This document shows positions 34,507 to 57,731 of a stretch of 64,000 nucleotides of DNA, one piece after another. The translations under genes and the position numbers were made by a program. The stretch spans positions 5,862 through 69,861 of the forward strand of contig CAZNSM010000002.1 of assembly GCA_964575615.1 (NCBI GenBank), given 5' to 3'. Source of the DNA: an uncultured Pirellulales bacterium. GTDB taxonomy: Bacteria > Planctomycetota > Phycisphaerae > Sedimentisphaerales > Anaerobacaceae. The notes beneath the pieces were generated by a model, which saw only the letters and a list, made by a program, of their open reading frames with translations, was not told where the DNA came from and did not search any database. Within the stretch, counting starts at the first letter, position 1, and each line of letters opens with the position of its first letter.

Positions 34507-34509
34507 CCC

Positions 34510-34908
34510 ATGAGCGCCAGCGACGACCACACGAAGCGTGCACCCGACCGGATGGCAGAGCGGCTGGACGAGTTGAGCCGCCTGCTGCGGGGGCAGATCG
34601 ACGGGGTGCGCGAAGGCCAGTTCGATCGGGTCGACCGGCTGGCGGCCCGCGCCGAGACGCTGGTGGCCGGAATGATCCAGGACCGGCAGCGTACGGGGAC
34701 GCTGGCCGAATCGCAAAGAGCGCATCTGGCGCGGTTATACGAGGAGCTGGCCCTCGCCCTGCGAGCCGAACGAGGCGACGTACAGGCGAAGCTCAGGCAG
34801 CTCAGACAGGTCAAGAGGGCCATCGCCGCCTATGGACGAAAGGCCCGGACAGGATCTCCGTCGCCGGCGACCTTCGGCGGCGGGGCACGTATTAAGGTCA
34901 CCAAGTAA
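34510..34908 (+). CDS. Helical hypothetical protein (132 aa), possibly chaperone-like
   Basis: Predicted to be all-helical and Arg/Leu/Gln-rich ('AKLRQLRQVKRAIAAY'). No family assigned. A loose resemblance to FlgN/FliT-type proteins is only an impression. Confidence 0.55.
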   Translation: MSASDDHTKRAPDRMAERLDELSRLLRGQIDGVREGQFDRVDRLAARAETLVAGMIQDRQRTGTLAESQRAHLARLYEELALALRAERGDVQAKLRQLRQVKRAIAAYGRKARTGSPSPATFGGGARIKVTK

Positions 34909-34920
34909 GGAGCGTTCCCG

Positions 34921-37102: not shown

Positions 37103-37104
37103 CC

Positions 37105-39441: not shown

Positions 39442-40277
39442 TCGCTATTCGCGAATACGATACGAAAGTCGCGGTGCCCACGACGCCTCCTGACGACGAA
39501 GGATGGATCCGGCAGTGGCACGGGCTGTACATGCTGGCCGAATCGTTCTCGCAGGAGAGTTGGCAGGGTCACGCGCAGTTGTTTTCGGGTCCTTCCTATC
39601 CGGCGCACGCACTGGAGGCCTTTGCCCTGATCTCGATCCTGCGTCACTTTGCTGGGCTCGATCGCTTCCACTTCATCGAACTGGGCAGCGGGCGGTCACC
39701 CTGGTGCCTGACCGTGGCCAGCGTGGTCGCGAACCGCCTGTTCGAGACGCGAATCGCTGACTACTTCGCGCTGGCGGTCGAGGCGGAGCCGCATCATTAC
39801 ATCTGGTCGGCGCTGCACTTTCTGCGACAGGACATTCACGGCGAGGTCGTTCACGGCGCGGTGGGCCGCAGCCGAGGGACCTGTCGTTTCAAGGCCGACA
39901 CCGACCCGGCGGCCCACATGGGACAGGCGGTCCGGCCCGACGGCAACATCGTGGTCGAATGCTACACGATCGAGGACCTGATGCGCGTCCACGGTCTGGC
40001 GCGCGTTCACGCAGTGCACATGGACATCCAGGGCGAGGAGGTCAACGCGGTGATCGGAGCGCAATCCTCGCTGGACGCCATCGACTTCTTTATCATTGGA
40101 ACGCACGGATCGCAGATCGAAGCCGAACTGAAACGATGGCTCGGGCGCACGCATCGGCTGGTGCTGGAGCTGCCGCGAGGTGGATCGCTGCACCTGGCCG
40201 GCATCGATCGGCCCTTCGTCTCTGCGGATGACGGCGTTCAAGTTTATCAGCGAGAAGCATTGTGTCGGGGAACCTGA
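39438..40277 (+). CDS. FkbM-family methyltransferase-like protein (279 aa)
   Basis: 'FIELGSGRSPW' and 'VHAVHMDIQGEEVNAVIGA' resemble FkbM-family motifs. ATGA overlap with the upstream stop. Confidence 0.7.
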   Translation: MIAIREYDTKVAVPTTPPDDEGWIRQWHGLYMLAESFSQESWQGHAQLFSGPSYPAHALEAFALISILRHFAGLDRFHFIELGSGRSPWCLTVASVVANRLFETRIADYFALAVEAEPHHYIWSALHFLRQDIHGEVVHGAVGRSRGTCRFKADTDPAAHMGQAVRPDGNIVVECYTIEDLMRVHGLARVHAVHMDIQGEEVNAVIGAQSSLDAIDFFIIGTHGSQIEAELKRWLGRTHRLVLELPRGGSLHLAGIDRPFVSADDGVQVYQREALCRGT

Positions 40278-42334: not shown

Positions 42335-43170
42335 GAGTGCTGCAAGTCATGCCGAAGCGCAAAGGCGCCGGCAATATCCTGCTGCAATACCGCAACAAGG
42401 TCACGTCCAGCAACGGCGAAGACGGCATCATCGAGTACATCGCGGCGAGGATGAACGTCGCTCCGGGCTATTGCGTCGAATTCGGCGCCTGGGACGGCCG
42501 CCTGGGAAGCAACACGTGGAACCTTCTGAATCATCGAGAGTGGAAGGGCCTGCTGATCGAAGCGGACCCCGCCAAGTACGCCCAATTGGAGAACCTGTAC
42601 CGCAACCATCCCGGCGTGGTGACCGCCAACGCCTTCGTCGGCTGGCAGGGCGACGCGGCGCTGGACCGGCATTTGGAGCGGTACGGCGTGCCTGCCGACT
42701 TCGCACTGCTGAGCATCGACATCGACGGAAACGATTGGCACGTCTGGCGGTCTCTGACGCGGTTTCGGCCGCGGATCGTTGTGATCGAGTTCAACAACCA
42801 CGTTCCCAACGACATTCTCTTCATCCAGGAAGCGGATATCGCGGTGAACCAGGGCAGTTCACTTCTGGCGATGATCGAGCTGGGCAAGCAGAAGGGATAC
42901 GAGTTGGTCTGCACTCTGGGGTGCAACGCCTTCTTCGTGCCCCGGGAGTATTTTGCCCTGTTCGGCATCGAGAACAACCATATCGATGCCATGTTCGACG
43001 ACACGCGGACGGAAACGAGAGTGTTCCAGTGCTACGACGGTACGCTGGTCCTGGCGGGGAAGAAGTCGCTGAACTGGCACAAGATCGACTTCTGTGACGA
43101 GGACATCCAGATTCTGCCCGCTTCGCTGCGACGGTACGGCAAGCGGCTGGATGTCTCCCCCACGACCTGA
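42331..43170 (+). CDS. FkbM-like/SAM-methyltransferase-like protein (about 279 aa)
   Basis: 'SNGEDGIIEYI...YCVEFGAWDGRLGSNTWNL...WKGLLIEADP' and 'LLSIDIDGNDWHVW...PRIVVIEFN'. ATGA overlap with the upstream stop. Confidence 0.65.
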   Translation: MRVLQVMPKRKGAGNILLQYRNKVTSSNGEDGIIEYIAARMNVAPGYCVEFGAWDGRLGSNTWNLLNHREWKGLLIEADPAKYAQLENLYRNHPGVVTANAFVGWQGDAALDRHLERYGVPADFALLSIDIDGNDWHVWRSLTRFRPRIVVIEFNNHVPNDILFIQEADIAVNQGSSLLAMIELGKQKGYELVCTLGCNAFFVPREYFALFGIENNHIDAMFDDTRTETRVFQCYDGTLVLAGKKSLNWHKIDFCDEDIQILPASLRRYGKRLDVSPTT

Positions 43171-43223: not shown

Positions 43224-46200
43224 ATGCACGCAGTGAACGATACACCCTACTTGAGCGTGGTGGCCACGTCGCGAAACGACGATCACGGCGGCAATCTGGT
43301 GCTGCGCATGCAGTTGTTCGTCCAGTGCCTGATGGCCCAGGCGAAGCGGCACCGCCTGAAGACGGAACTGATCCTGGTGGAATGGAATCCGCCCGCCGAC
43401 CGTCCCCGGCTGAGGGAGGCGCTGCGCTTCGACGCCCATCATCCGTTCTGCTCGGTGCGCATCGTCGAGGTCCCGGCGGCGATCCACGCTCGCTATCGGC
43501 ACGCGCAGGCCTTGCCGGTGTACCAGATGATCGCCAAGAACGTGGGCATTCGCCGGGCGCGCGGCCGTTTCGTCCTGGCGACGAACGTGGACATCGTGTT
43601 CTCCGATCCGCTGTTTGCCCGCCTGGCGAAGCAGGATCTTCAGTCCGGGCGCTGCTATCGCAGCATCCGCCACGATGTGGACAACGCATTGACGTCCGGG
43701 ATGCCTGTCGAAGCGGTCCTGGACTATTGCCAGAGCCATTTGATCCGCGTGAACCAGCGAGAGTGCTCGCTCAACGTGCGTGACGGGTCCAGACATGTCG
43801 TCTACCGTCCGGGTGTGAGTGAGGCGCAGCTTGGGCACCCGAAGCTGTTCACCAACGGTTGCGGCGATTTCACCCTTCTGGCGCAGGAGGACTGGTCTCG
43901 TCTGCGCGGCTACGCGGAACTGGACATGTTCTCCTTCCATCTGGATTCACTGTTCCTGCACTGTGCGTACTACGCCGGGATCGCCGAACACGTGTTTCCC
44001 GACGACCACGTGCACTACCACATCGAGCACCAGGAGGGGTGGACCCCGGAGATTCATCGCGACCGAACGCTGGACGCCCGGTTGGACAAGGGACAGATCG
44101 ATCGTCTGGACAACGCCTCCCTGCGCCGGCTGCTGGACCGCATGCGAAACGAGGGAAAACCGCTGATCTTCAACGACGCGAACTGGGGCCTGGCCAACGA
44201 CCATTTGGCCGAAGAGCGCGTGACCATTGCGGATTGGGAACGAACGGAACCGCAGGAGGCCGCGAGCGCGGGCAAAGCGGCCGATACAGCGTGGGCTAAA
44301 GCCCATCCTACGTATCTGAGCGTCGTGGTGACGACGCGGAACGATGACCACGGCGGGAATCACCTCCATCGGTTCCAGGTCTTCCTCGACCATCTGGCCG
44401 ACATGTGCGCGCGGCATCGCCTCGCGGCCGAGCTGATCGTGGTGGAATGGAACCCCGACCCCTCGCGGCCGTCGCTGGTCCAGGCGATGCGCTGGCCCGA
44501 TCCGTCGCGACTGGCGAGCCGGGTGATCGTTGTTCCTCCTGAGATTCATCGATCGTACCGGAACTCCGACAAGTTCCCGTTGTTCCAGATGATCGCCAAG
44601 AACGTGGGAATTCGGCGGGCCCGAGGGCAATACGTTCTGGCGACCAACATGGACGTGCTCTTCTCTGACGAACTGGCCGCCTGGCTGGCCCGGCGGGAGC
44701 TGCGGGAGGACTGTGTCTACCGCATCGACCGGCACGATGTGGGCCAGACCGCGATCCCGTCGGGATTGTCGCGCGACGAGGTCCTGGAGTTCTGCGCCCG
44801 TCACGTGGTGCGCGTCCACGGGCAGCATGGCACCTGTGCGTGGGGCGATCCGCCGCGGGTCGGCGATCCGGACCGACTGCACAGCCATGCCTGCGGCGAC
44901 TTCACCCTGATGGCGCGCACCCAGTGGGAGCGGCTCAAAGGCTATCCGGAATTCCCCCTGTGGTCGATCTATCTGGACGGCCTGCTGCTTCATGCGGCGC
45001 GCGCCGTCGGTCTGGAGCAGAAGATCCTTCGCGAGCCACTGCGCCTCTACCATGTCGAGCATTCGCTCGGCTGGGCGGTGAACCAGGACACCGTCAAAGA
45101 GCGACCGAGCCTGGATTACCACAAGGAATACCAGCCCCTGTGCGCGGAGATGCTGCGTACTCACAAGGCGCTGGACGTGAATTCGGAGAACTGGGGCCTG
45201 AAGGATAAGGCGCTGGAAGAGTGTGAGCCTGGAGCGCGCGGTTTGCCGCCGGCGTCGATGACGTGCACTGCCGGCGAGCGGCCGGACGGCTTGTCGGACA
45301 AGATCGTCCGCTCCTGGATCGACCGCATCAGCTCCACGGAGAATCGACTCTACTACCGAGACCAGTCCGCACAGACCCTGATCGCTCTGGCCCGCTATGC
45401 CCGCACAATGAATCCCACGGTGGTCGTGGAGCTGGGAACGCTGGCCGGGCTTTCGCTGCGCACCTGGATCGCCGCGGCCGAACGCGCCAGGATCTACGCG
45501 GTCGATCTGAGCTTCCAGACCTTGCAGGAGACCGGACGCGTTCTGCCCCTGGACCTGTCGCGCGTCACTCTGCTGGAGCAGGACATCCTCAAGACGGATT
45601 TTGCATCCCTCTGGACCGCGCAGGACCGGGTGATCTTCTTCGTGGATGCGCACGATCTGCCCGGCGTGCCGATCATGGAGCACGTGCTGACGAGGGCGCT
45701 TCCGGCCTTGCCGGACGGCAGCCTGGTGGTCGTGGACGATCTGTGGTTCAGCGCCGAAAGACTGACGCGCGACAACGCCAAGGCGTTTCTGGACAGCCGC
45801 GTGGTTGCAGAGATCGACGAGCTGCAATGCTTCGAAGGGTATTACGCGCCGTACCACGAAGGCGGCTCGTTCATGGGCTTTGCCGAGGTTATCCCGCTGC
45901 TGAAATTCGTCAACGCGCACGGCATTCTGCTGGCCTGCGAGAAAGGGGGCAAGCAGGTCTCGTTCGTGTGGCGAAGCGCCTTGCGAGAGGCAGTCAGATC
46001 GCGCGGGGCAGGTTCAACGGAGCCGGCCGAGTGCTACGGTTCGGTGTTGCACAATCCGCTGACCTCTGTTCCCGTGCCGGCGCCGCTGCGGGAAATGATG
46101 GACGGCCTCGCCCAGGAGTACCGGCAGAAGAAGATCGTGCCGGTAGCGGAACGCCTGGCCAGGCTCCTGGAGCAGTATCCCAACGATCCGGGTTTGTCCT

Positions 46201-49200
46201 ATGCCCTGGCAGTTTGCCTGGCCCGCTGCCGCGAGCTGACGCGCGCCAGAGACATCCTCGGTCGCGTCGTCCGCGACGGTGCCGATCCGCGTTGCCGTCG
46301 GCTGTTCGACGATCTTGTCGCGCGGGTTGGACCCGGTGGCACGGCGTCGTCCCGAGTTCCTTCCTCGCCGCCGCAGGACGGAGAGGGGCTGACGATCTTC
46401 GCGATGCCCAAGCCGTTTGAGGGACACATCGCGACCATCCAGAAGAACGCGATCCGAAGCTGGGCCCGGCTGCGGCCGGCCCCGCAGATCATCCTCTTCG
46501 GCGACGAGCCGGGGACACGTCAGATCGCGCAGGAGGTCGGCGCCTGTCACGTGCCCGACATCGAGCGCAACGAATTCGGAACGCCCCTGGTCAATAAGCT
46601 GTTCGAGGAGGCCCAGAAGCGCGCTTCGCATCGGATCGTCGCTTACGTGAACGCCGACATCATTCTTTTTGAGAGCTTCGTAAAGGGCGTGCGGGAGGTC
46701 CAGTCGCGTCTTGCGAAGTTCCTTCTCATCGGCCAGCGCTGGGACCTCACGGTGCTCGACGAGATCGACTTCGGCCGGCCCGACTGGCCCAGCATGCTGC
46801 AAGCCCAGATGCAGGAACGTGCGATGCTGCACGGCGAGTGCGGCCTGGACTACTTCGTGTTTCCCAAAGGGGTGTACCCCGAGATTCCACCGTTTGCGAT
46901 CGGGCGAATCGCCTGGGACAACTGGCTGGTCATGGCTCCGCACCGGGCCGGCGTTCCGGTCGTCGACGGCACCGAGTTCATCACGGCGGTCCATCAGGAC
47001 CACGATTATGGACACGTCGCCGGAGGCCGGCGTGGCGCCTGGAGCGGCGCAGAGGCCTCGCGCAACCGCGCCTTGGCCGGAAAGGTGGATGATTCGGCCT
47101 ATGCCTCCGGGGCCGAGTGGGTCCTGCGGCGAGATGGGCGGCTGGCCGAATCGCGGCCGCGAGAACCGGTGTTCGGCAGCACGGCGTACCGGGAGTATCG
47201 CCATGCCTGGCTGGCGAAGGAGGCGCGACGATTGATGGCCCTCGACCGAATGGAGCTGGCGGCGGCCAAGTGGGAGGAGACGCTCCCGATTCTCGAGCGC
47301 CTGCTGATTGCGGCACGGCGCAAGGGAAGCTCTCCGGACTCGGACGGTGTCCGACTGGCCGAATGCTATGCGACCGCGTGCGTGTCACTGGCCCAGTGTC
47401 ATATGCAACTGGGTTGCCACGATCGAGTCGTGGCGGACTACACGCGGCTGCTGGAGACCTCCCTTTTCGAGATTCCGCAGAAGCAGCGTGACGACATCCA
47501 GCGGGTGTGCGATCGGCTGCGCGAGCGTCTGCCGCAGAGCAAAGACCCTCTGGTGCATTCGCCCGTCGATCGACAGAAGCGATCCGCTCCGGCCGAAACG
47601 GTTCAGCCCTCGAGATGCTGTGGGGCGGCGAGACCGGGCCTCGGTGAGAAGCGGCTGGCCCTGATCGTCTCGATTCCGGATCGCGCCGACGATTTGCGCC
47701 GTCTCCTCGTGGACCTCGAAGACCAGGTGGACGATATCCGCATTCTGCTGAACGAGTACGAAACGGTCCCGGAGGACCTGTATCGTTTCGCCAAGGTCAC
47801 TCGCGTCGAAGCCAGTCCGAAGGGCGAGTTGTATGCCAGCGGGGCCTGGGACTTGCTGATGCCGGATGACGAGGGGTATGTGCTCGTGATGGACGACGAC
47901 ATCAAGTATCCGCCGGATTATGCCGACACGATGATCGCGAAGATCGAGGAGCATCAGCGTCGCGCCGTCGTCGTGGTCCACGGGATGGATTTCCGTCCGC
48001 CGTTTGCCGACTTCGTCGTGGATCGGAACATGTATCATTTCGAAACCGCTTGTCGTCAGGATCGTGTGGTGCATGCCGGAGGCGTGGGGACGCTGGTGTT
48101 CCACACCAGCACGATTCGCCCCCGGAGCCGTGACTTCCCGAACCCTAATTTCCGCGACCTGTGGTTTGCCGTTCTGGCGGCCAAACATGAGGTGCCCATC
48201 GTGTGCATCGCGCACGACGCCGGCTGGCTGCTTGCCAAAAGGATGCGCGGCAGACAACTGTGGCGCATGGCCTACGAACAAGGCCAGAGGGACCTGAAGA
48301 ATGAGGTCTTCCGAACCCGCCTTCTGCCTTTGCTGAACATCGACGTGCTCCAGACCCACGCGACCGATCATCGCTTCACCATCTTCTGCTTCACCAACGG
48401 TCGTAGCACGTTCGACTACTGCGTCCGATCGCTGACGGATTCCTGGGACCAGCACGAGAAGACCGTCGTGCTGCGAGATATGGACTTCTTCGAGGCCACT
48501 GCCCAATGCCTCGAAGATTGTGAGACACCGTACTTCTTCAAGGTCGACGACGATTTTCTCCTCCACCCCCAAGCCATCGCCTACATGCGAAAGAAGGTGC
48601 TGGAGTATCCTTGTCCGGAGGAACTGGGGATCTACTACTGCCATCTGTGGGAGGACTGGACCAGCCGCGTGCGACAGAGCATCAAGGTCTACCGGGCCGA
48701 GGCCCTGCGTCGGATCGGCGGGTTCCAGGCGAACGATCAGGGGAAGGTGGACGAGGCGACCAAAGCAGCGCTGGAGCGGGCCGGGTTCAAGGTTGTTGAG
48801 GACCCCAGCGTGGTGGCACTTCATGCCTGCGGCACTTGGGAAGAGCAGTTGGAGTACGAGCGGCTCTGGAGCGCGATGGCCGATGCGCCCTACAAGAAGC
48901 CCACACATGATGCGATGAAGGCTTACTGCGGAACCAAATCGCTCGATACGCAATACGCCATGAGGTTGGGGACGCTGGAGTCCATCAACCGGCAGTTGAA
49001 CACTCCGTTCCACCGCTTTCTGGTCGAGAGCGCAGCGGACTCTCCCAGCAGCGCGCTACCGGAGAGCGAGGTATCCGACTCCTCGGCGCATGTGGCGGAG
49101 GATACTGCGGCCGGCGGAAGCCTGCTTCATCCGTCCTCCCGCCCTCGGCGACAGAGGGTACGCGATCGCCTTCTGCGGGCAGAGCCGACGGCGCGACGCG

Positions 49201-52200
49201 GATCGCAACCCGACGCCGGACGTCGGCCACGAGTCACCGTGGTGCTGGCGTGCCGCGATGGGGAGCGACACCTGCCGGAATGTCTGGACAGCATTCTGAA
49301 GCAGACCCTGTCGGAGTGGGAGCTGTTCTTGCTCGACGACGGCAGCACGGACGGCACGCGGCAGGTCATGGAAAAGTACGCCGCCCGCGATGCGCGCATC
49401 CGGCCCTTCTACTTCGACCAGAGCGCCGGGCCGTACATTCGCCGCAATTTCGCCATCGAGCGCGCCGGCGCTCCTTTCGTCGTGATCCAGGACGCCGACG
49501 ACCTCATGTGCCCCGAGAAGCTGGAGCGGCTGTGGTTGGCCATCACCCAGGACGACCGTCTTGGCGTGGTCGGCTCGTTCTACCACATGTTTCTCGATGA
49601 GTACCAGGGGGCGGAACACAGCGATACGGTCGTCCTGAAGACGACGCACGAGCAGATCCTGGAAGAATACCGAAACGCGGCCGTCTGTGATTTCTGCTGG
49701 CATGGCTCGGCCATCATCCGCAAGCGCCTCTTTGAGGATATCGGGCCCTACGACGAGAACCCCTTCGCCTCGGACTCCTTCTGGCTGGCCAAGGTCGCGG
49801 AGTATGCGTGCCGAAGCGAGGCGGTTCGCTTGATGAATCTGCCGGAGGTGCTGACGCTGCGACGGATGCACGTCAGCTCTCAAACGGGCAGCCTGCCGGC
49901 GTTCGATCCACGCAGTCGGCGGGCGCACTTCAAGGAGCACCGCCGCCAGAAACTGTCGGAATTGATTCGAACGCTCCATGCCGACCCTCGTGCCGATATC
50001 AAGGCGGTCCTGCGTCGCACCGTTTGTGGCGACTTCATCAAGCAGAACGCACGGCTCTTCCCCGAATGGGAAAACGCGCCTTTGACCGGTCCGATCGTCC
50101 AGGGTTTCCTCGGACGGATTTACAGTCACTTCACGAAGGGGCAGTTCGTTCAATGCCTCTGGACGAGCCGGATCGTGGAACAACTGGTGACGGGCATCGC
50201 GCAGAACGTGCGAAGCTACGAACTGATCAAGGGTCTGGCCTATTTCGCACTCGGGTACCCTTGCGAGAGTCGGGAATGCCTGGACCGGGAATGTGACATT
50301 CATGGGACCCCTGTGGCGATGCAGTTCCGCGCGGACTGGCTCGATCGGGGCAACGGTCTCCAGCCGCGAGCCCAGCGTTTGAGCCTCATCGAAAGGGCCC
50401 TCTTTCATCCGGACGGCAGACGAACGGAGCCGGTCGAGTGTCTTCCGGACAGCGGCGCCAAAGGACCGACGGGCGTGTCGGTTATCGTGTCTCTCGCGGG
50501 GGATGCGGCGTCGTGGGCCGATGTGATCGCTTCTTTCGACGCACAGACGGAGAAGGACTTTGAGGTCATCGCACTGGTTCCAGCGCCTTTGGCGGAGGAC
50601 CTGGCGCGTCGGGCCGCACACGTCGGCTTTCGTCTCTCCGTCCTCGGCACGAGGGAGGGAGCGAGCCCGTGTCGCTACAGGAATGCGGCAGCCGAGCAGG
50701 CGCAGGGCCGCTGCCTTGCGTTCCTGGGAGAGTACGTGGCGCCGGACCGTGACTTCGTCGCACGTGTACAGCAGCATTTCCAGGAGAAGGACCTCTGCGG
50801 CCTGCGAGGCCGGATTCTCTGTGAGGGCCGTTCCTCCACTCCCCTCCGATTCGACTTGGGGCCGGACCAGATGGCCGCTGCATGGGACATCGACGAATTG
50901 TGTGTCTTTGACAGAGAGACCTTCTTCCGCCTCGGCGGGTTCCCCGCCGTGCCGTTCGATCACGGGGCGATTCACCTCTCGCATCGGGCGTACGCCGATC
51001 TGCGTGACGGTCGGCGTCGTATTCTCTATTGCCCCGATGTGCTCTGTCGCTACCGTGGACCGGAGGAGGCGCGGGTTGGTCTCGTAGATCGGTTCGCCAT
51101 GGAGAATCGCTTCGCGGTCAGTCAAGCGCTGCTCGCGGTCGATCTCCAGGAGGACCAGGAACGTCATGTATGGGGATTCCGCGAGTTCCTGGAGGGGTTG
51201 TACTGGCGAGACACCGGTACGCCGGAAGAGTGCTTCCGACGGTTTCTCCGGACCAGCCTGTTTTTCCGGGAGCGCGACCCTCGCCTGGCAAGCGAGTGGG
51301 CGCGGATGGCGCTGCGGCTGCGTCCGGACTGCATTGAGGCCCGTTGTGTCCTGGGTTCTGCGCAGGCGATGCTGGGCCAGCCCGGTGACGCATGCGTTCT
51401 TCTCGAAACGTGCCTTGAGCCGTTGGAGGAATTGATCGCCTTGGAGCGGCTGGATCGCGCGCGAAGCGAGTTCAGAGGCTATGCCGATATCGTGGAATGT
51501 TACGTTGCCAGTTGTACGCTTCTGGCCGAGTGCTATATGAAGACGGGCCGGTACGATCGCGTGGGCGTCACCTATGCGCGACTGCTTGGGAACCCCCATG
51601 TCCATCTCGATCCGGCTCAGCGGCAGAACATGGAACGCATACGAGACCGCCTGGTTTCGTCGCACCGGGCCGAGATCGTGCCCGTGCCCTCGCATGGGGC
51701 CGGATGCGGACGCGATGTGGCGCCGGTGAATTCTGCTCCGCCACGCAGGATGGAGCCGCAAAGCCCGGCGGTGCCATCGACAGATGGGTCAGGCCGGGAT
51801 CGTGCGTCGGAAAACCCGTGCGTTGCGAAGCTGACGGAGCTGGAACGCATGTATCGATCGATGCCGCCAGGATCGGCGTCCCGACATGCGGTGGCCAGCC
51901 GGCTCGCCAAACTGTTCCGCAAGGCCGGCGCGACCGACAAGAGCAGGATGCTGGAGATGGAAGCCCGGGCCATCGGCAACACCATGGCCTACGAAGAGGC
52001 CCGGCGGACCAAACCGGACGTCTGTTCCCATCGCCCCGTGACCGTGGAGTTCAACGTGATCACCCGGTGCAACGGCGGCTGCGTCATGTGCAGCTACGGC
52101 ACAGACGGCGAGATTATGGACCTGGCACAGTTCCAGCATCTCGCGGACGAGTGGCTGCCGGCCGCCCGCGATGCCCATCTGATCGGCGGCGAGGTCCTGC

Positions 52201-55200
52201 TGCACCCGCAGTTCTACGAGCTCTGCGAATACGCCAATCGTTTTGGCGTGTGCCTCGGTATGACGACCAACCTGTCGACGCTGGCGGGACGGAGGGCAGA
52301 GGCGATCACGAGGTTCTTCCACACGGTTCGGGTCTCTGTGGATGGGGCCACCCGACAAACCTATGAATCCATACGTCGGCGTCTGAGCTTCGAGCGACTC
52401 TGTCAGAACCTGGCGGTTCTGGCGGACATCAAGCGAAGCAGGCCGGAACTCGAGATGGAACTGGCCTTTGTCGCGATGCGCCAGAATATTGCGGAATTGC
52501 CCGACGTGATCGAAATGGCCGCCCGGTACGCCTTCGATAGCGTCGCCGTCAATTTCGTCCATGTGTACAATGCTCAGACCTTGGACGATTCGCTGCTGTT
52601 TCACCGAGAACTGGCGAACAAGCACCTCGACCTGGCCCGGGCGGCAGCGGCCCGACTCGGCCTGGCTCTGGACATTCCCGACAACTTCGACCTGAGCCGG
52701 ACGCCCTACGTGGCCTCGCAACAACTGACGGAAGGCCACAGACAATGCACCCGGCCCTGGCAGCGCGTTCGACTGCTCATCCATGGCGAGGTCATTCCCT
52801 GCTGTCATCTCCACGACCTTCCGATGGGCAATGCGCTGGCGGAGTCCTTTGAGGGGGTGTGGAATGGCGAGAAGTTCAGAGGACTGCGACAGGCCATCCG
52901 GGACAGTCGCGATGAAATGCCCGAGCGATGTAAGCACTGCCGCATACTCATGCGAGGAGCCGATTCCAACGACGCGATGATGCACGTCAATCCGGCTCTT
53001 GTGCCCGAACTGAAGCAGCGCCTCCAGACGCGGGCCAGTACGCCGGCGGTGGCTGTATCCACTGCGTCCGCGCCGCGTGTATCCGTGCTGGCAGTCAGCG
53101 TGGTGTTGGCGTGCCGCAATGGGGCCGAGCACCTGCCGGAATGTCTGGACAGCGTCTTGGCGCAGACCCTGTCGGAGTGGGAATTGCTGCTTCTCGACGA
53201 CGGGAGCACCGACAGTACGCGCGGGATCATGGAGGCGTACGCCGCCCGCGATGCGCGCATCCGGCCCTTCTACTTCGACGAAAGCGCCGGACCGTACGTC
53301 CGTCGCAATTTCGCCATCCGACAGGCCCGTGCACCGTTTGTCTCGATTCAGGACGCTGACGACATCATGTGTCCGGACAAGCTCCGGCGTCTGTATGACG
53401 CAATCGGCGGCGACGAGCGTCTCGCGGTCGTGGGTTCGTTCTACCGGAAGTTCCTGGATGATTTCACCGGCATCGAATCCACGGAGGCCGTGACGTTGCC
53501 GGCAACGCACGAAGAGATTCTAAAGGCATACGACGCCCGGTCCATGTGGGATTTCTCCTGGCACGGCTCGGCGATCGTCCGGCGGATGCTGTTCGAGGAG
53601 ATCGGGCTGTACGACGAGAACCCCTTCGGCGCCGACTCGTTCTGGCTGGCCAAGGTAGCCGAATACGCCCGCCGCACGGAGCGTATCCGGTTGTGCAATA
53701 TTCCGGAGTCTCTCACTCTGCGGCGGGTGCACAGCGAATCGCAGGTGGGGCAACTGCCGGCGATGGACCCCCGCAGCCGACGAACGCGCTATTCGCAGTA
53801 CTGCCTCAGCCGGCTCCAGGAGGTGGTCAACACGGTGGCGCGCGACCCCTCGATGGATGTCGCCCGGGCGCTGCGCGAATGCACCTGCGCCGACTTCCTC
53901 CCGCGCTTCGGCGCGCAGATCGCCGAATGGGAGCGCGCGCCGATGGACGAAGGGATCGTGGTTCGCTTCCTTCAGCGTGCCACAGAGTGCTTCCGAATGC
54001 AGCGTTACGTCAGTTGCGTGCAGACCCTGTCCGCGTTGGAAGGCATGGACCCGGAACTGCCGCATCGCCTCGCCAATGTCGATCTGGTCCGCGCGCTAGC
54101 GCTCTATGGGCTGGGGCAGAAAGAGCGGTGTCAGATTTATCTGCGCAGGGAGATGGCCCATCACGACAACCCGGTCGCCCGGCAGTTTTACGAGGAGGCC
54201 TTCACGCGAGGCGTGCCGATCGACGTGCACCAGTGGGGCGCTGAGCATGTGGACGCCGTCGCATTGCGAATCACGGATGCAAGGCTTTCGGCCCCGTCTG
54301 CGCCGGCAGGGCCCGGCGTCGAGACGGCGGCGGGCGAGTCGCCCAAGGTCACGGTGATCACCGCGTGCCGGAATGCCGCTCGGTTCCTCCCGGAGTGCCT
54401 GGACAGCATTCTGGCCCAAACGCTGGGCCAGTGGGAGCTGTTTCTGCTCGACGATGCCAGCACGGACGACACCCGCCGGATCATCGAGGAATACGCGCGA
54501 CGGGATGGACGCATCCATGCCCATTTCTTCGACGACCAGAAGGGACCGTACGTCCGGCGGAATTTTGCCATCGAGCGGGCCCGCGCGGATTTCATCGTGA
54601 TTCACGATGCCGATGACCTGATGTGCTCCACCAAGCTGGAGACTCTGTACGACGAGATCAGCCGGGACGACCGGCTGGCGATGGTGGGCTCGAACTACCG
54701 TACATTCCTCGAAGCGTATCGCGGTCCGGAATACAGCGAATGCAGCCAACTGCCGTTGAAGGACGACGAGATTCTGACCCGGTTCAAATCCTGGCAGCAC
54801 GGGATGAGTCACGGATCGGCGATCATCCGCAAGACCCTCTTCGCCGAGATCGGTCTCTACGACGAAAATCCATTCTCCGCCGACTCCTTCTGGTCGGCGA
54901 AACTGGCTTTGTATGCCGAGGCCGGCCGGCCCATCTTCGTGAAGAATGTGCCCGAGAGCCTGACCCTGATCCGTCTGCACGCGATGAACCACACGCGGGT
55001 CGTCTCGACACTCGATCCGCGCAACCGAAGGACGCGGTACCGGCAATACTGCGAAGGCCGGCTGTGGCGCATCCGTGAGCGGCTGAAGTCGGAACCCGGC
55101 ATGGATATCGGACGGGAACTGCGCCAGTGTGCCTGCGGCGACTTCCTGACCCGTTTCCAGGCCCAGATCCTCGCCTGGGAGAGTGAGCCTTTGAACGATC

Positions 55201-55577
55201 GAGTGGTCCCGGAGTATCTGGACATCGCCTTGTTGCTGTTCAACAGGGGCTGTCACGTCAGTTGCGTCAATGTCCTCAACAACGTGGAGGCATTCGATCC
55301 GGGCGTGGCCGCTCGTGTGGCCGGCTATGATCTGCTTCGAGGTCTGGCGTTCTTCGCGCTGCGGATGAACGGGCCAGCGCGGCTGTGTTTGGATCGCGAG
55401 ATTCGTCGTCACGGCACGGCCGCGGCCCGCCGATTTGTCGCAGATGCCTTCGAGTCCACCAAGCCGGTCGATCTGGCGTCCTGGTGTCAGGAGTGCGGGG
55501 AGCGATTCGGTCTGCGCCTGGTGGAGGCCGGACCGCCAAAATCGCGGCAGACGACGCTTTCGTCCGTCGGGGTCTGA
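43224..55577 (+). CDS. Giant multidomain glycosyltransferase/methyltransferase/radical-SAM polyprotein (about 4,117 aa)
   Basis: Uninterrupted 12.35-kb ORF with recognisable enzyme-like motifs along its whole length. These are two 'YLSVV..(S/T)RNDDHGGN' GT-A-like modules, an MT-like module, 'IFAMPKPFEGH', 'VMDDDIKYPPDY' and 'FFKVDDDFLLHP' GT-like modules, three 'ACR(D/N).....LPECLDS.L.QTL..WEL.LLDD.STD' GT2 modules, one divergent GT2-like module, a 'CNGGCVMC' radical-SAM/SPASM domain, and TPR-like spacers. Confidence 0.85.
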   Translation: MHAVNDTPYLSVVATSRNDDHGGNLVLRMQLFVQCLMAQAKRHRLKTELILVEWNPPADRPRLREALRFDAHHPFCSVRIVEVPAAIHARYRHAQALPVYQMIAKNVGIRRARGRFVLATNVDIVFSDPLFARLAKQDLQSGRCYRSIRHDVDNALTSGMPVEAVLDYCQSHLIRVNQRECSLNVRDGSRHVVYRPGVSEAQLGHPKLFTNGCGDFTLLAQEDWSRLRGYAELDMFSFHLDSLFLHCAYYAGIAEHVFPDDHVHYHIEHQEGWTPEIHRDRTLDARLDKGQIDRLDNASLRRLLDRMRNEGKPLIFNDANWGLANDHLAEERVTIADWERTEPQEAASAGKAADTAWAKAHPTYLSVVVTTRNDDHGGNHLHRFQVFLDHLADMCARHRLAAELIVVEWNPDPSRPSLVQAMRWPDPSRLASRVIVVPPEIHRSYRNSDKFPLFQMIAKNVGIRRARGQYVLATNMDVLFSDELAAWLARRELREDCVYRIDRHDVGQTAIPSGLSRDEVLEFCARHVVRVHGQHGTCAWGDPPRVGDPDRLHSHACGDFTLMARTQWERLKGYPEFPLWSIYLDGLLLHAARAVGLEQKILREPLRLYHVEHSLGWAVNQDTVKERPSLDYHKEYQPLCAEMLRTHKALDVNSENWGLKDKALEECEPGARGLPPASMTCTAGERPDGLSDKIVRSWIDRISSTENRLYYRDQSAQTLIALARYARTMNPTVVVELGTLAGLSLRTWIAAAERARIYAVDLSFQTLQETGRVLPLDLSRVTLLEQDILKTDFASLWTAQDRVIFFVDAHDLPGVPIMEHVLTRALPALPDGSLVVVDDLWFSAERLTRDNAKAFLDSRVVAEIDELQCFEGYYAPYHEGGSFMGFAEVIPLLKFVNAHGILLACEKGGKQVSFVWRSALREAVRSRGAGSTEPAECYGSVLHNPLTSVPVPAPLREMMDGLAQEYRQKKIVPVAERLARLLEQYPNDPGLSYALAVCLARCRELTRARDILGRVVRDGADPRCRRLFDDLVARVGPGGTASSRVPSSPPQDGEGLTIFAMPKPFEGHIATIQKNAIRSWARLRPAPQIILFGDEPGTRQIAQEVGACHVPDIERNEFGTPLVNKLFEEAQKRASHRIVAYVNADIILFESFVKGVREVQSRLAKFLLIGQRWDLTVLDEIDFGRPDWPSMLQAQMQERAMLHGECGLDYFVFPKGVYPEIPPFAIGRIAWDNWLVMAPHRAGVPVVDGTEFITAVHQDHDYGHVAGGRRGAWSGAEASRNRALAGKVDDSAYASGAEWVLRRDGRLAESRPREPVFGSTAYREYRHAWLAKEARRLMALDRMELAAAKWEETLPILERLLIAARRKGSSPDSDGVRLAECYATACVSLAQCHMQLGCHDRVVADYTRLLETSLFEIPQKQRDDIQRVCDRLRERLPQSKDPLVHSPVDRQKRSAPAETVQPSRCCGAARPGLGEKRLALIVSIPDRADDLRRLLVDLEDQVDDIRILLNEYETVPEDLYRFAKVTRVEASPKGELYASGAWDLLMPDDEGYVLVMDDDIKYPPDYADTMIAKIEEHQRRAVVVVHGMDFRPPFADFVVDRNMYHFETACRQDRVVHAGGVGTLVFHTSTIRPRSRDFPNPNFRDLWFAVLAAKHEVPIVCIAHDAGWLLAKRMRGRQLWRMAYEQGQRDLKNEVFRTRLLPLLNIDVLQTHATDHRFTIFCFTNGRSTFDYCVRSLTDSWDQHEKTVVLRDMDFFEATAQCLEDCETPYFFKVDDDFLLHPQAIAYMRKKVLEYPCPEELGIYYCHLWEDWTSRVRQSIKVYRAEALRRIGGFQANDQGKVDEATKAALERAGFKVVEDPSVVALHACGTWEEQLEYERLWSAMADAPYKKPTHDAMKAYCGTKSLDTQYAMRLGTLESINRQLNTPFHRFLVESAADSPSSALPESEVSDSSAHVAEDTAAGGSLLHPSSRPRRQRVRDRLLRAEPTARRGSQPDAGRRPRVTVVLACRDGERHLPECLDSILKQTLSEWELFLLDDGSTDGTRQVMEKYAARDARIRPFYFDQSAGPYIRRNFAIERAGAPFVVIQDADDLMCPEKLERLWLAITQDDRLGVVGSFYHMFLDEYQGAEHSDTVVLKTTHEQILEEYRNAAVCDFCWHGSAIIRKRLFEDIGPYDENPFASDSFWLAKVAEYACRSEAVRLMNLPEVLTLRRMHVSSQTGSLPAFDPRSRRAHFKEHRRQKLSELIRTLHADPRADIKAVLRRTVCGDFIKQNARLFPEWENAPLTGPIVQGFLGRIYSHFTKGQFVQCLWTSRIVEQLVTGIAQNVRSYELIKGLAYFALGYPCESRECLDRECDIHGTPVAMQFRADWLDRGNGLQPRAQRLSLIERALFHPDGRRTEPVECLPDSGAKGPTGVSVIVSLAGDAASWADVIASFDAQTEKDFEVIALVPAPLAEDLARRAAHVGFRLSVLGTREGASPCRYRNAAAEQAQGRCLAFLGEYVAPDRDFVARVQQHFQEKDLCGLRGRILCEGRSSTPLRFDLGPDQMAAAWDIDELCVFDRETFFRLGGFPAVPFDHGAIHLSHRAYADLRDGRRRILYCPDVLCRYRGPEEARVGLVDRFAMENRFAVSQALLAVDLQEDQERHVWGFREFLEGLYWRDTGTPEECFRRFLRTSLFFRERDPRLASEWARMALRLRPDCIEARCVLGSAQAMLGQPGDACVLLETCLEPLEELIALERLDRARSEFRGYADIVECYVASCTLLAECYMKTGRYDRVGVTYARLLGNPHVHLDPAQRQNMERIRDRLVSSHRAEIVPVPSHGAGCGRDVAPVNSAPPRRMEPQSPAVPSTDGSGRDRASENPCVAKLTELERMYRSMPPGSASRHAVASRLAKLFRKAGATDKSRMLEMEARAIGNTMAYEEARRTKPDVCSHRPVTVEFNVITRCNGGCVMCSYGTDGEIMDLAQFQHLADEWLPAARDAHLIGGEVLLHPQFYELCEYANRFGVCLGMTTNLSTLAGRRAEAITRFFHTVRVSVDGATRQTYESIRRRLSFERLCQNLAVLADIKRSRPELEMELAFVAMRQNIAELPDVIEMAARYAFDSVAVNFVHVYNAQTLDDSLLFHRELANKHLDLARAAAARLGLALDIPDNFDLSRTPYVASQQLTEGHRQCTRPWQRVRLLIHGEVIPCCHLHDLPMGNALAESFEGVWNGEKFRGLRQAIRDSRDEMPERCKHCRILMRGADSNDAMMHVNPALVPELKQRLQTRASTPAVAVSTASAPRVSVLAVSVVLACRNGAEHLPECLDSVLAQTLSEWELLLLDDGSTDSTRGIMEAYAARDARIRPFYFDESAGPYVRRNFAIRQARAPFVSIQDADDIMCPDKLRRLYDAIGGDERLAVVGSFYRKFLDDFTGIESTEAVTLPATHEEILKAYDARSMWDFSWHGSAIVRRMLFEEIGLYDENPFGADSFWLAKVAEYARRTERIRLCNIPESLTLRRVHSESQVGQLPAMDPRSRRTRYSQYCLSRLQEVVNTVARDPSMDVARALRECTCADFLPRFGAQIAEWERAPMDEGIVVRFLQRATECFRMQRYVSCVQTLSALEGMDPELPHRLANVDLVRALALYGLGQKERCQIYLRREMAHHDNPVARQFYEEAFTRGVPIDVHQWGAEHVDAVALRITDARLSAPSAPAGPGVETAAGESPKVTVITACRNAARFLPECLDSILAQTLGQWELFLLDDASTDDTRRIIEEYARRDGRIHAHFFDDQKGPYVRRNFAIERARADFIVIHDADDLMCSTKLETLYDEISRDDRLAMVGSNYRTFLEAYRGPEYSECSQLPLKDDEILTRFKSWQHGMSHGSAIIRKTLFAEIGLYDENPFSADSFWSAKLALYAEAGRPIFVKNVPESLTLIRLHAMNHTRVVSTLDPRNRRTRYRQYCEGRLWRIRERLKSEPGMDIGRELRQCACGDFLTRFQAQILAWESEPLNDRVVPEYLDIALLLFNRGCHVSCVNVLNNVEAFDPGVAARVAGYDLLRGLAFFALRMNGPARLCLDREIRRHGTAAARRFVADAFESTKPVDLASWCQECGERFGLRLVEAGPPKSRQTTLSSVGV
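43245..45240 (+). repeat. Tandem duplication of a GT-A-like module of about 330 aa inside the giant ORF (copy 1 about 43245-44290, copy 2 about 44309-45240)
   Basis: Collinear protein similarity ('YLSVVATSRNDDHGGNLVLRMQLF...LILVEWNP' vs 'YLSVVVTTRNDDHGGNHLHRFQVF...LIVVEWNP'; 'YQMIAKNVGIRRARGRFVLATNVDIVFSD' vs 'FQMIAKNVGIRRARGQYVLATNMDVLFSD'). A 23-nt identical run, cagatgatcgccaagaacgtggg, is shared. Confidence 0.8.
49230..50460 (+). repeat. GT2 + helical-tail module, copy 1 of 3 (inside giant ORF)
   Basis: Paralogous to 53090-54300 and 54344-55574. It shares a 43-nt identical run with copy 2 (49376-49418 = 53237-53279). Confidence 0.8.
52030..52960 (+). other. Radical-SAM/SPASM domain embedded in the giant ORF
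   Basis: 'VEFNVITRCNGGCVMCSYG' is a CxxxCxxC cluster. It is followed by 'IGGEVLLHP' and the tail 'CTRPWQRVRLLIHGEVIPCCHLHDLPMGNALAESFEGVW...CKHCRI'. Confidence 0.8.
53090..54300 (+). repeat. GT2 + helical-tail module, copy 2 of 3
   Basis: 'VVLACRNGAEHLPECLDSVLAQTLSEWELLLLDDGSTDSTRGIMEAYAARDARIRPFYFDESAGPYVRRNFAI...IQDADDIMCP' is collinear with copy 1 over about 400 aa. Confidence 0.8.
54344..55574 (+). repeat. GT2 + helical-tail module, copy 3 of 3 (C-terminus of giant ORF)
   Basis: 'VTVITACRNAARFLPECLDSILAQTLGQWELFLLDDASTDDTRRIIEEYARRDGRIHAHFFDDQKGPYVRRNFAIERA...IHDADDLMCS'. It sits directly in tandem with copy 2. Confidence 0.8.
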
Positions 55578-55703: not shown

Positions 55704-57731
55704 ATGGGCGAATTGCGGCTTTCCGGCCTGTCGACGGGCATTGACACCGAGACACTGGTCAAGCAACTGGTCGCGATTGAAGGGCAACGGCGCGACAAGT
55801 ACGTCGAACGAAAAGAGACTTGGGACGAGCGCCGGGAGGCCTTGAACACGCTGGAAACGAAGCTGGAGGCCCTGCAAAAGGCGGCCGAAGGTCTTTCCGA
55901 CGCCAAGAAGCTGCGTTCCTTCGGAACCAAGACCAGCGATGAGGATATCCTTTCGGCCGAATCGTCCAACACGGCTTATGAGGGCAGCCATTCGGTCGTC
56001 GTGAATCGGCTGGCGAATGCGGAACGCTGGGTGCACACCAGCGGCCTGGAATATGCGGAAAGCCTCGTTGGGGCCGGCACGTTCATCTTCTCATACAACA
56101 ACGAAGAGATGGTCATCACCACCACGGAGGACACGACGCTGGAGGAACTCGTGGGGCTGATCAACAACGACGCGAGTAACCCGGGCGTGACCGCGAATTT
56201 GCTGTCCTATAATGACGCGTATCATCTCGTGCTGAACGGCAACGACGCCGGCTCGGACTACGAGATCAAGATCAACACCAGCAACACGGAGGTGTGGCAA
56301 ACGGCCTCGGCCCTGACGGTCGGGGGCGAAAACGTCGCCCTGTCCGATAAGATCCGCAAGCTCGATCAATTCAGCGGCGTGCTGGCGGGCGACGAGTCCA
56401 TCACCATCTCGGGCACGATGCACGACGGCACGGTGGTCAACCACACGCTGAACGTCAACGAGAATACGACCCTGGATCATCTCCTCGGAGAGATCAATGA
56501 CGCCTTCGCAGGCACTGCGACCGCGACGCTGGTCAACGGCCAGATCCGGCTGACCAGCGAGACCAGCGGCGTCAGCCAGATGACGCTCAGCCTGGCGTAC
56601 GATTCCGGATCGGGGTCCACTACGCTGGACCTGCCGGCGATCAGCCAGTCCACGCAGGGGGGCAGTGTGACGGCCAGCCTGGCGGGCTTTGCCGGGTCGG
56701 ATTTCGTCGAGACGCAATCCGCCCAGGATTCTCAGATCAAGGTGGATGGCTTTCCGCCGGGCGCCGATGAGTGGATCAGTCGCAGTTCGAACACGGTTGA
56801 CGACGTCATTTCCGGCGTGACGCTGCATCTGCACGACGCCGGGACCGTGCAAGTGAGCCTGACCCGCGACACCGAATCGGTCAAGGACAAGCTCCAGTCG
56901 TGGGTGGACGCCTACAATGACGTGGTGGCGTTCATCGCGGCAAACACCGGATACGACAGCACACAGGGGATCGCGGGCCTTCTGATGAGCGACTCGACCG
57001 TCACGAGCATTGCCAACAACCTGCGGACGTCCCTGGTTCGGCGAACCAGCGGCTTCGTTATGGACGTGGACAGCTTCCTCATGCCGGGACAGATTGGTCT
57101 CGAACTCGACCGCGACGGTCTGCTCTCGCTGGATTCGACGGCGTTCGATGAAGCAATCGCGAAGGACTACATGGGCGTGCTTTCTCTGATCGGGGCCGAC
57201 AAGACGGGCAGCTCCGACAGCAACGTGGTTCAGTTCTACAGCGCCTCGAGCAAGAACACGCAAGGCGGGACGTACAGCGTGCAGGTGACGGTTTCCGGAG
57301 GAGTCATCACCAGCGCCAAGATTAAGCCGGAAGGCGAATCCGCCTATCGCGATGCGATATTCGCCGGCAACATTGTCACCGGAGACCGAACGTTCGATAA
57401 CAATGGAGCGCCGCTGTACGCGGAGAATGGCCTGACGCTCAGCGTCGATCTCAGCCAGGACGGCACCTTCAACGCCACGGTCCGCGTCAAGCAGGGATTC
57501 ACCGGGGCGATGAAGGACGTGCTCGAGCGGTTCCTGAAGCCCACGAACGGATGGCTCACACTGGACCAGGAGTCGGTCGAGTCGCAGATTGAGAACCTGG
57601 AGGACCGCATCGCGACAGAGGAAAACCGCCTGTCGCGCGTGGAGGCGCGTCTGGTTGCGAAGTATGCACGGCTCGAGAGGACTCTGACCCTGCTGCAAAG
57701 CCAGATGTCGGGGCTTCTGTCGAACGAGTAG
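55704..57731 (+). CDS. fliD: Flagellar filament cap protein FliD (675 aa)
   Basis: 'LSGLSTGIDTETLVKQLVAIEGQR' at the N-terminus and a C-terminal coiled coil ('RIATEENRLSRVEARLVAKYARLERTLTLLQSQ'). Confidence 0.9.
   Translation: MGELRLSGLSTGIDTETLVKQLVAIEGQRRDKYVERKETWDERREALNTLETKLEALQKAAEGLSDAKKLRSFGTKTSDEDILSAESSNTAYEGSHSVVVNRLANAERWVHTSGLEYAESLVGAGTFIFSYNNEEMVITTTEDTTLEELVGLINNDASNPGVTANLLSYNDAYHLVLNGNDAGSDYEIKINTSNTEVWQTASALTVGGENVALSDKIRKLDQFSGVLAGDESITISGTMHDGTVVNHTLNVNENTTLDHLLGEINDAFAGTATATLVNGQIRLTSETSGVSQMTLSLAYDSGSGSTTLDLPAISQSTQGGSVTASLAGFAGSDFVETQSAQDSQIKVDGFPPGADEWISRSSNTVDDVISGVTLHLHDAGTVQVSLTRDTESVKDKLQSWVDAYNDVVAFIAANTGYDSTQGIAGLLMSDSTVTSIANNLRTSLVRRTSGFVMDVDSFLMPGQIGLELDRDGLLSLDSTAFDEAIAKDYMGVLSLIGADKTGSSDSNVVQFYSASSKNTQGGTYSVQVTVSGGVITSAKIKPEGESAYRDAIFAGNIVTGDRTFDNNGAPLYAENGLTLSVDLSQDGTFNATVRVKQGFTGAMKDVLERFLKPTNGWLTLDQESVESQIENLEDRIATEENRLSRVEARLVAKYARLERTLTLLQSQMSGLLSNE

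Follow-up and report, generated by a model that had tools for sequence, protein, structure and literature searches.

What does a radical S-adenosylmethionine (SAM) domain do in the middle of a giant glycosyltransferase that is encoded within a flagellar gene cluster? We examined this question in a stretch of 64,000 nucleotides (the window) from contig CAZNSM010000002.1 of GenBank assembly GCA_964575615.1 (positions 5,862 to 69,861, forward strand). The organism belongs to the Sedimentisphaerales (Phycisphaerae, Planctomycetota), and the domain, here called module R, is 98% identical to one in the metagenome-assembled genome AnMBR.bin504. The original prediction, made from the bare sequence, placed a radical-SAM/SPASM domain between glycosyltransferase modules of a giant open reading frame (ORF), considered it a paralogue of half of a nearby double radical-SAM protein, and proposed that a radical-modified intermediate is channelled directly into glycan assembly. 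Profile searches, alignments, and a predicted structure indicate that R is almost certainly a functional radical-SAM/Twitch module in a conserved fusion. Its substrate is probably a carbohydrate, of either kind (growing glycan or nucleotide sugar). In the full reading that we favor, to which we assign a probability of about 0.4, R would tailor a growing glycan within a flagellin-directed glycosylation megaenzyme.

The giant ORF extends on the forward strand from 43,218 or 43,224 to 55,577 as one open frame, free of stops over 4,119 codons. From the ATG at 43,224, where our residue numbering starts, it encodes a protein of 4,117 amino acids (an alternative GTG start is at 43,218), and its codon-position G+C is typical for a genuine gene (0.79 at third positions, in a window of ~63% G+C). 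Pfam identifies three strong glycosyltransferase family 2 (GT2) domains, Methyltransf_24, tetratricopeptide repeats (TPR), Radical_SAM, and SPASM. The motifs quoted for R in the original prediction are all where it had placed them, in the single frame of this ORF. CNGGCVMC, at nucleotides 52068–52091, provides C2949, C2953, and C2956 in the CxxxCxxC arrangement that binds the [4Fe–4S] cluster of radical-SAM enzymes, and IGGEVLLHP, at 52182–52208, contains GGE, the SAM-binding motif of the superfamily. The tail motif GEVIPCCHLHDLPMGNALAESFEGVW occupies nucleotides 52785–52862 of the same frame (the stretch GEVIPCC...MGNALAESFEGVW), and CKHC is found at 52929–52940. We aligned free and fused relatives of R in two sets, of 16 (A1) and 13 (A2) sequences; the three cysteines of CxxxCxxC are invariant in both, and G67 and E68 of the GGE motif are invariant in A2.

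Profile and structural evidence converge on the same assignment. Pfam Radical_SAM (PF04055) scores 39.9 bits against a cutoff of 29.5 over residues 2944–3072, and phmmer searches of R against its relatives give E-values of 1e-98 to 1e-178. An AlphaFold2 (ColabFold) model of R, computed with 13 relatives as input, has a predicted local distance difference test score of 91.6 and a predicted TM-score of 0.89, with alternating beta and alpha elements. A Foldseek search of the PDB with this model returned 154 matches at E ≤ 1e-3 (best E 8e-15), and the best 50 of these 154 are all radical-SAM enzymes. Pfam, AlphaFold2, and Foldseek therefore agree on a radical-SAM domain inside the giant multi-glycosyltransferase ORF, and the check for a different fold, which had been proposed together with the domain, assigned R to the radical-SAM fold. 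The location first given for the domain (52030–52960) holds, although the homologous unit is slightly larger: tblastn against a stand-alone relative (P0001, 47% identity) delimits it to residues 2919–3267, or nucleotides ~51,978–53,024. A methyltransferase-type radical-SAM assignment was considered and rejected, as Pfam and NCBIfam revealed no B12-binding, HemN-like, or RlmN-like features in R.

The label radical-SAM/SPASM was correct as to the core and to the family of the tail, but the tail has the four-cysteine Twitch form and not that of a full SPASM domain. Its four invariant cysteines, within nucleotides 52746–52940, are C3175 (nt 52746), C3193 (52800), C3236 (52929), and C3239 (52938), corresponding to columns C253, C271, C314, and C317 of A1 and A2. 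With the three of the SAM cluster, these make exactly seven cysteines that are invariant in the two alignments, as are GGE and further SAM-site positions; C3194 is invariant too, within the close clade only. The seven-cysteine pattern of full SPASM domains (CX9-15GX4C...CX2CX5CX3C...C) occurs in neither R nor any close relative. The tail of R has only C-x12-G-x4-C and CxxC, and no cysteine, hence no CX5CX3C, follows CKHC. Pfam SPASM passes its cutoff (45 bits versus 21.5, residues 3175–3239) because this profile also covers the shortened form. The model contains a Twitch-type hairpin (E259–262/E267–269) and a helix (H294–305). Based on the cysteine pattern and this model, the tail of R is predicted to be a Twitch domain like that of BtrN, with space for a single auxiliary cluster, rather than a full SPASM domain.

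BtrN, the 2-deoxy-scyllo-inosamine dehydrogenase of the butirosin pathway (PDB 4M7S/4M7T), is the founding Twitch enzyme and acts on a carbohydrate-like substrate. Like R, it combines a radical-SAM core with a four-cysteine shortened SPASM domain, and residues 3167–3241 of R align to BtrN residues 161–237 (4m7s_A) with all four cysteines and the pattern G-V-PC...MGN...W...CxxC in register. Only the Twitch region is alike (E 6e-4), and the top 50 fold matches of R do not include BtrN. Furthermore, BtrN is a free antibiotic-pathway enzyme of 250 amino acids, whereas R is one module of a flagellar-locus protein of 4,117 amino acids.

The fusion is conserved. Relatives of R were gathered by an exhaustive HMMER search of a cluster-representative library, and the five best matches are located within giant proteins of 1,946–4,014 amino acids, at 59–77% identity. 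Intact orthologous ORFs of 2,913–4,156 codons (stop-to-stop spans included) occur at loci L003–L009, L011, and L012, and a gene call of 3,963 amino acids at L090 runs past the end of the locus. The contigs of the five best matches show the gene order of the window (giant gene, fliD, flhB-fliR-fliQ-fliP-fliO-motB-motA), and fliD is directly 3' of the giant gene in all nine other loci with enough sequence (9/9). The core G1-E-T3-R-G2/G3 is constant across orthologs (P0025–P0028, L007–L009, L011, L012), while the N-terminal part varies, and a GT2 module lies directly 3' of R in every ortholog. In a neighbor-joining tree without support values the fused R domains group together in a single clade whose sister is a stand-alone protein of 368 amino acids (P0029), a topology that fits a single fusion event. 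The ratio of nonsynonymous to synonymous substitution rates (dN/dS) of R is 0.079, 0.107, and 0.149 versus L007, L008, and L009, the lowest of any module in these comparisons. Other modules have values of 0.13–0.5, and R is low in every measurable comparison. R is thus under strong purifying selection and among the most constrained modules of the protein. The covalent tether to transferases on which the original prediction was built is upheld by this selection and by retention of the fusion in nine further loci.

A word-indexed search of 5.8 billion proteins gave 23 matches to R, none of them fused, the best being the 47% identical stand-alone protein. That the fusion might be unique to the window was rejected, as the indexed search had missed all of the giant orthologs that the exhaustive HMMER search found. 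The NCBI name of the ortholog of 4,014 amino acids is simply "glycosyltransferase". Compared with this ortholog (P0025; L003/L012), modules G1, E, T3, and G2 have synonymous divergence (dS) of 0.10–0.21 and amino acid identities of 89–96%, and fliD is 95.6% identical. In the same comparison R has a dS of 1.0 and 77% amino acid identity, and the methyltransferase module has a dS of 1.08. The R module of P0025 resembles that of P0024. From these patterns, whole modules seem to be swapped between lineages with the frame staying open.

The immediate surroundings of R in the polypeptide differ somewhat from what had been proposed. R was said to lie between glycosyltransferase modules; this is true downstream, where a canonical GT2 module (G2) follows, but directly upstream is a TPR block (T3), preceded by a GT2-like module without a DxD motif (E). 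Module E is homologous to the G (GT2) modules by hhalign (probability 92%, E 5e-7), with a Pfam GT2 match of just E 0.028, and both acidic motifs are gone: IQDADD is replaced by FLGEYV, and LLDDGSTD by VIALVPAP. Though degenerate, E is kept in every ortholog directly ahead of the TPR block and the radical-SAM module. Judging from its sequence, E could serve as a non-catalytic sugar- or nucleotide-binding module.

The giant gene is the last gene of an island of ~25 kb between flgK/flgL and fliD. Upstream of the island are fliA, flhA, two sigma-54 activators, flgD, flgE, flgA, flgI, flgK, and flgL; downstream, fliD is followed by flhB, fliR, fliP, fliO, motB, and motA on the opposite strand. The island itself encodes, in order, a TPR-GT1 protein, a GT2-TPR protein, a TPR protein, an unknown protein of 132 amino acids, a UDP-glucose dehydrogenase (Ugd), a methyltransferase, the double radical-SAM protein, an FkbM methyltransferase, a TPR-Methyltransf_24 protein, and an FkbM-like protein. 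Independent gene calls in a 99% identical assembly (L090) agree with these genes. Glycosyltransferase and sugar-modification genes thus lie within a flagellar cluster and the linkage is conserved, as expected of a flagellar glycosylation island.

The closest stand-alone relatives of R also occur in a glycan context. P0001 (47% identity to R) is inside a Wzm/Wzt O-antigen-type glycan cluster, where the downstream GT1 gene overlaps it by 4 nt. P0029 (52%) is flanked on one side by a GT2 gene and on the other by a carbamoyltransferase gene, with genes for GT61 and GT29 close by, and a GT1 gene overlaps P0031 (41%). Each of the three stand-alone relatives at 41–52% identity therefore adjoins glycosyltransferase genes. 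An independent fusion, P0097, has the architecture GT2-GT2-GT4/1-rSAM-rSAM (rSAM, radical SAM). The P0001 locus was also considered as a collinear, unfused version of the giant gene; this was rejected, as the locus offered no more than the radical-SAM gene (47%) and a weak match to GT2.

We hypothesize that the megaenzyme attaches to flagellin through its TPR blocks, in the manner of FlmG, whose TPR domain binds flagellins and is required for glycosylating them (PMC7591256). Upstream glycosyltransferase modules (G1, aided or guided by the DxD-less E) would make a glycan intermediate. R would then reductively cleave SAM and take a hydrogen from a sugar carbon of this intermediate. The likeliest outcome would be a two-electron oxidation to a keto-sugar or an epimerization, and deoxygenation or decarboxylation would be less likely. 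The GT2 module(s) fused directly downstream of R would extend the modified glycan. As no characterized enzyme is close, we infer from context that the substrate is a carbohydrate, that it is the growing glycan and not a nucleotide sugar, that the chemistry is of the kind proposed, and that flagellin is the target. In PDB sequence searches the only matches of R are the sugar-acting BtrN and BlsE (cytosylglucuronate decarboxylase), both marginal at E ~6e-4, and DesII and BlsE are among its top Foldseek matches.

Several observations weigh against this reading. The window contains no flagellin gene, and flagellin glycosylation in this lineage is itself putative. The sugar-precursor genes upstream of the giant gene differ among relatives, so the sugar acted on cannot be named. 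The peptide maturases SuiB, SkfB, and CteB score as well as the sugar enzymes against the R model (TM-score ~0.67). Naming the chemistry by fold was accordingly rejected, with peptide maturases, sugar enzymes, viperin, and MoaA all at TM-scores of 0.55–0.68; structure does not discriminate between substrates here, because maturases of RiPPs (peptides that ribosomes synthesize and that are modified after translation) match as well as sugar enzymes. Among curated families the best for R is NCBIfam NF033640 (N_Twi_rSAM), at 92.5 bits (E 3e-26) against a cutoff of 170, so that by the curated cutoff R is not a member; the match is partial, in two stretches, the best of which covers model positions 161–311 of 398. 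R also scores far under the cutoffs of characterized equivalogs, including BlsE (TIGR04466, 28.9/400), PqqE (51.6/381), MftC (55.1/265), and the tungsten-cofactor maturase model W_rSAM_matur (70.1/380), and likewise far under those of the NirJ, AhbD, and MoaA models. One relative at 34% identity has no glycan context. Finally, in a census of 68 loci of the broader family (~25–35% identity; crude ORF calls), glycosyltransferases made up just ~8% of the 136 immediate neighbors, and radical-SAM proteins (26/136, 19%, the most frequent class), TPR proteins, and methyltransferases were commoner. Because this enrichment is modest, we claim the glycan link for the clade at ≥41% identity only.

Channelling of a radical-modified intermediate into the glycan, as originally proposed, is plausible and agrees with the genomic context. 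An alternative close to the original prediction is that R makes an unusual, perhaps labile, nucleoside diphosphate sugar (keto, deoxy, epimerized, or decarboxylated) that is channelled as a donor to the adjacent GT2. DesII, which acts on a TDP-sugar, and BlsE, which acts on a nucleoside-linked glucuronate, are among the best structural or sequence matches of R, a canonical GT2 follows R in every ortholog, and both the P0001 and the P0031 gene overlap with the GT1 gene downstream. The UDP-glucose dehydrogenase of the island and the KfiA/heparosan-synthase-like module C of the giant protein make a donor derived from UDP-glucuronic acid (UDP-GlcA) conceivable, but the ugd gene and module C are both outside the conserved core. 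Moreover, BtrN, whose auxiliary-cluster domain is the nearest to that of R, acts on a free aminocyclitol, and the TPR and GT2-like modules upstream of R look to us as though they present an acceptor rather than belong to a donor pathway. We regard donor channelling as doubtful. A protein substrate seems to us unlikely. Here R would, in the manner of SPASM/Twitch peptide maturases, oxidize, epimerize, or cross-link a residue of flagellin or another flagellar protein presented by the TPR block, which is a protein-binding element directly upstream of R in all orthologs; TPR proteins are also frequent neighbors in the broader family. Peptide maturases dominate the SPASM family, and top Foldseek matches of R (SuiB, SkfB, CteB, anSME, EpeE, PqqE) modify peptides, whereas its PDB sequence matches, BtrN and BlsE, are sugar enzymes. 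R has no RiPP-recognition element and no room for one, because only ~25–35 residues precede the core in the alignment and model, and its single predicted auxiliary cluster is unlike anSME and most sactisynthases. The closest stand-alone relatives occur in O-antigen-type or other glycan clusters (Wzm/Wzt, glycosyltransferases), and none of P0001, P0029, and P0031 is beside a flagellin or precursor-peptide gene.

It is very improbable that R is an inactive relic or a structural or Fe–S redox-sensing module, or that the giant ORF does not yield one polypeptide. The giant protein does tolerate degenerate catalytic modules, as E demonstrates, N-terminal module content differs among relatives, and the product of ~450 kDa is a predicted chain. 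A relic would hardly be expected to retain the seven cluster cysteines, GGE, and further SAM-site positions invariant in fused and free members alike, or to have a dN/dS below that of every other module in the closest comparisons. The frame is open in every independent assembly examined, and R is still intact even where it seems to have been exchanged whole by recombination. Within the reading that we favor, tailoring of a growing glycan, a more specific scheme is a protein-templated glycan assembly line, in which the TPR blocks dock on flagellin, R functionalizes a C–H bond of the nascent glycan between two glycosyl transfers, and E acts as a sugar-binding "recognition element" for R. We put this forward as speculation; if true, it would be a carbohydrate counterpart of the tailoring domains in polyketide synthase and nonribosomal peptide synthetase megasynthases.

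Known systems share parts of this architecture. BlsE, DesII, and the Twitch epimerases NeoN and HygY take a hydrogen off a sugar carbon by radical chemistry, with decarboxylation, deamination/oxidation, or epimerization as the result. BlsE (7VOB) matches R in sequence (E 7e-4) and fold (TM-score 0.67/0.68) and DesII (8HZV) in fold (E 2e-13), at just 16–18% identity in the structural alignments; unlike R, none of the four is known to be fused to glycosyltransferases or linked to flagella. FlmG-type flagellin O-glycosyltransferases resemble the giant protein in domain layout, as they combine TPR with a glycosyltransferase and are encoded within a flagellar cluster. FlmG has 596 amino acids and one GT-B domain, and transfers pseudaminic acid, whereas the single chain of the giant protein holds at least four GT2-type modules and more glycosyltransferase-like ones, along with a methyltransferase, three TPR blocks, and the radical-SAM module. 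Multi-module polysaccharide synthases, such as the heparosan synthases PmHS2/KfiA and the O-antigen polymerases WbdA and WbbB, have, like the giant protein, several glycosyltransferase modules per polypeptide that work in sequence. They have two or three such modules and no radical-SAM module, and they make capsule or O-antigen rather than a flagellar glycan.

In the published literature we found no description of a radical-SAM/glycosyltransferase flagellar glycosylation system, including in Sedimentisphaerales. To our knowledge, radical-SAM enzymes that act on sugars come almost exclusively from antibiotic pathways, in which they are separate proteins, and flagellin glycosylation is documented only with conventional transferases and nucleotide-sugar pathways. 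The radical-SAM/Twitch domain type is already known. What is new is its conserved embedding in a multi-glycosyltransferase of ~4,000 residues next to fliD, the lineage (anaerobic Planctomycetota), and the implied tie of an unnamed Twitch clade to glycan assembly. The fusion suggests that strict anaerobes may diversify a surface glycan by radical chemistry and that module order may encode reaction order. It could also act as a "Rosetta stone" that points to a glycan-tailoring role for unannotated stand-alone Twitch radical-SAM genes in O-antigen-type loci, and T3-R-G2 is a defined construct for enzymologists seeking a new sugar radical reaction.

The island contains three radical-SAM domains, as the original prediction stated, with exactly three CxxxCxxC motifs in the called genes of the window. 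The other two are in the stand-alone double radical-SAM protein, which is 99% identical to P0172, also called as one gene of 778 amino acids. The motifs quoted for its second domain are present (39208–39291, with CKYC at 39355–39366). The claim that this domain and R are paralogous and clearly related as a pair did not survive. The two align over their full length at 22% identity and score 53 bits with BLASTP and 34.7 bits with phmmer (E 9e-4 at the size of the representative library), a superfamily-level similarity that 21,215 cluster representatives equal or exceed. HMMER finds that number matching R at E ≤ 1e-3, and 5,264 at 1e-10. In the reciprocal search R ranks 126th of 155, in a protein set picked for likeness to R. 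Within the shared string G-V-PC...MGN...W...CxxC, A1 shows little or no variation at G, PC, GN, W, and CxxC, all of which BtrN also has. The string is no sign of special kinship because it is a family-wide Twitch signature, and the extra agreement at NAL.ESF is not shared by the orthologs of R. Gene conversion between the two tails was rejected, with 25 of 36 nucleotides identical at MGNAL.ESF and a longest shared word of 12 nt. Conservation of the giant gene does not extend to the double radical-SAM gene, which is absent from the 10 kb upstream of the giant gene in L003, L004, and L006. By sequence comparison, R and the C-terminal half share a branch of the superfamily (radical SAM with a four-cysteine tail) and do not form a specific pair.

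Homologs of the double radical-SAM protein (P0178–P0183) are elsewhere fused to Methyltransf_24, TPR, or FkbM methyltransferase domains, and the next two genes in the window encode these domains (FkbM, 39438–40277; TPR-Methyltransf_24, 40262–42334). This Rosetta-stone link suggests that the double radical-SAM protein works with the adjacent FkbM and TPR-Methyltransf_24 methyltransferases. More distant relatives of R (P0034, P0036, P0038, P0059; 27–29% identity) carry from two to four radical-SAM/SPASM units in tandem, and some of these proteins have a class-III aminotransferase at their end. In the next-closest group, P0034 and P0036, rSAM-rSAM is fused to such an aminotransferase. By analogy, this fusion brings to mind BtrN and its partner aminotransferase, which take an alcohol through a ketone to an amine. 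Multi-radical-SAM cassettes that include TPR proteins and methyltransferases seem to be widespread in uncultured lineages.

Table 1. Modules of the giant ORF and other features of the flagellar island (positions in the window)
Feature	Position (nt)	Strand	Basis or remarks
Module order in the giant ORF			A1-A2, MT, TPR, B, TPR, C, D, G1, E, T3, R, G2, G3
flgK and flgL, upstream island border	26921–30504	+	Pfam FlgK_D1, Flagellin_N
Rest of island	30666–43170	+	Pfam; independent gene calls in L090
ugd (UDP-glucose dehydrogenase)	34921–36345		
Stand-alone double radical-SAM protein, 778 aa	37105–39441	+	N-terminal half CNLKCPYC; C-terminal half CVFKCEFC and four-cysteine tail
Modules A1, A2	43224–45323	+	Tandem, ~340 aa each, 45–60% mutual identity, start SVV.T.RNDDHGGN
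Module MT, class I methyltransferase	45321–46013	+	Pfam Methyltransf_24
Module B	46326–47243	+	Begins IFAMPKPF; kept in most orthologs
Module C, KfiA/heparosan-synthase-like	47601–48428	+	Matches to heparosan synthase B and KfiA
Module G1, GT2 and helical domain	49206–50483	+	Pfam Glycos_transf_2/Glyco_tranf_2_2; repeat of G2, G3
Module E, GT2-like without DxD motif	50511–51323	+	hhalign to G modules
Module T3, TPR-like block	51321–51803	+	Internal repeat with T2; position constant in all orthologs
Linker T3 to R, ~64 aa	51804–51995	+	
Module R, radical-SAM core and Twitch	51978–53024	+	aa 2919–3267
Module G2, canonical GT2 (DDGSTD, DADD) and helical domain	53076–54308	+	Best Pfam GT2 stretch aa 3292–3460
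Module G3, second C-terminal GT2 and helical domain	54321–55574	+	Pfam, internal repeat, ortholog mapping
fliD (filament cap), immediately 3' of giant ORF	55704–57731	+	Pfam FliD_N, FliD_C

Among the N-terminal modules, A1/A2 and B gave no match in Pfam and PDB sequence searches, and module D showed no recognizable family in the same searches. Module C matches heparosan synthase B (residues 305–513) at E 9e-26 and KfiA at E 8e-17. Matches to modules C and D came only from the closest relatives of the window, L007 and P0025, and in three relatives the 10 kb upstream of the giant gene showed no Ugd. Module C and ugd together hint at a glycan containing GlcA and N-acetylglucosamine in this lineage.

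Parts of two GT2 modules, at 49269–49523 and 53130–53384 (residues 2016–2100 and 3303–3387), have 82% identity over 85 codons at the protein and the DNA level alike, and the rest of this repeat has just 35–60% identity. The patch suggests a recent intragenic duplication or gene conversion. Outside the island, an ORF of 427 amino acids between flgE and the rod/ring genes (20570–21853) has a weak C-terminal PilZ match (E 4e-7) and may encode a flagellar regulator that responds to cyclic di-GMP.

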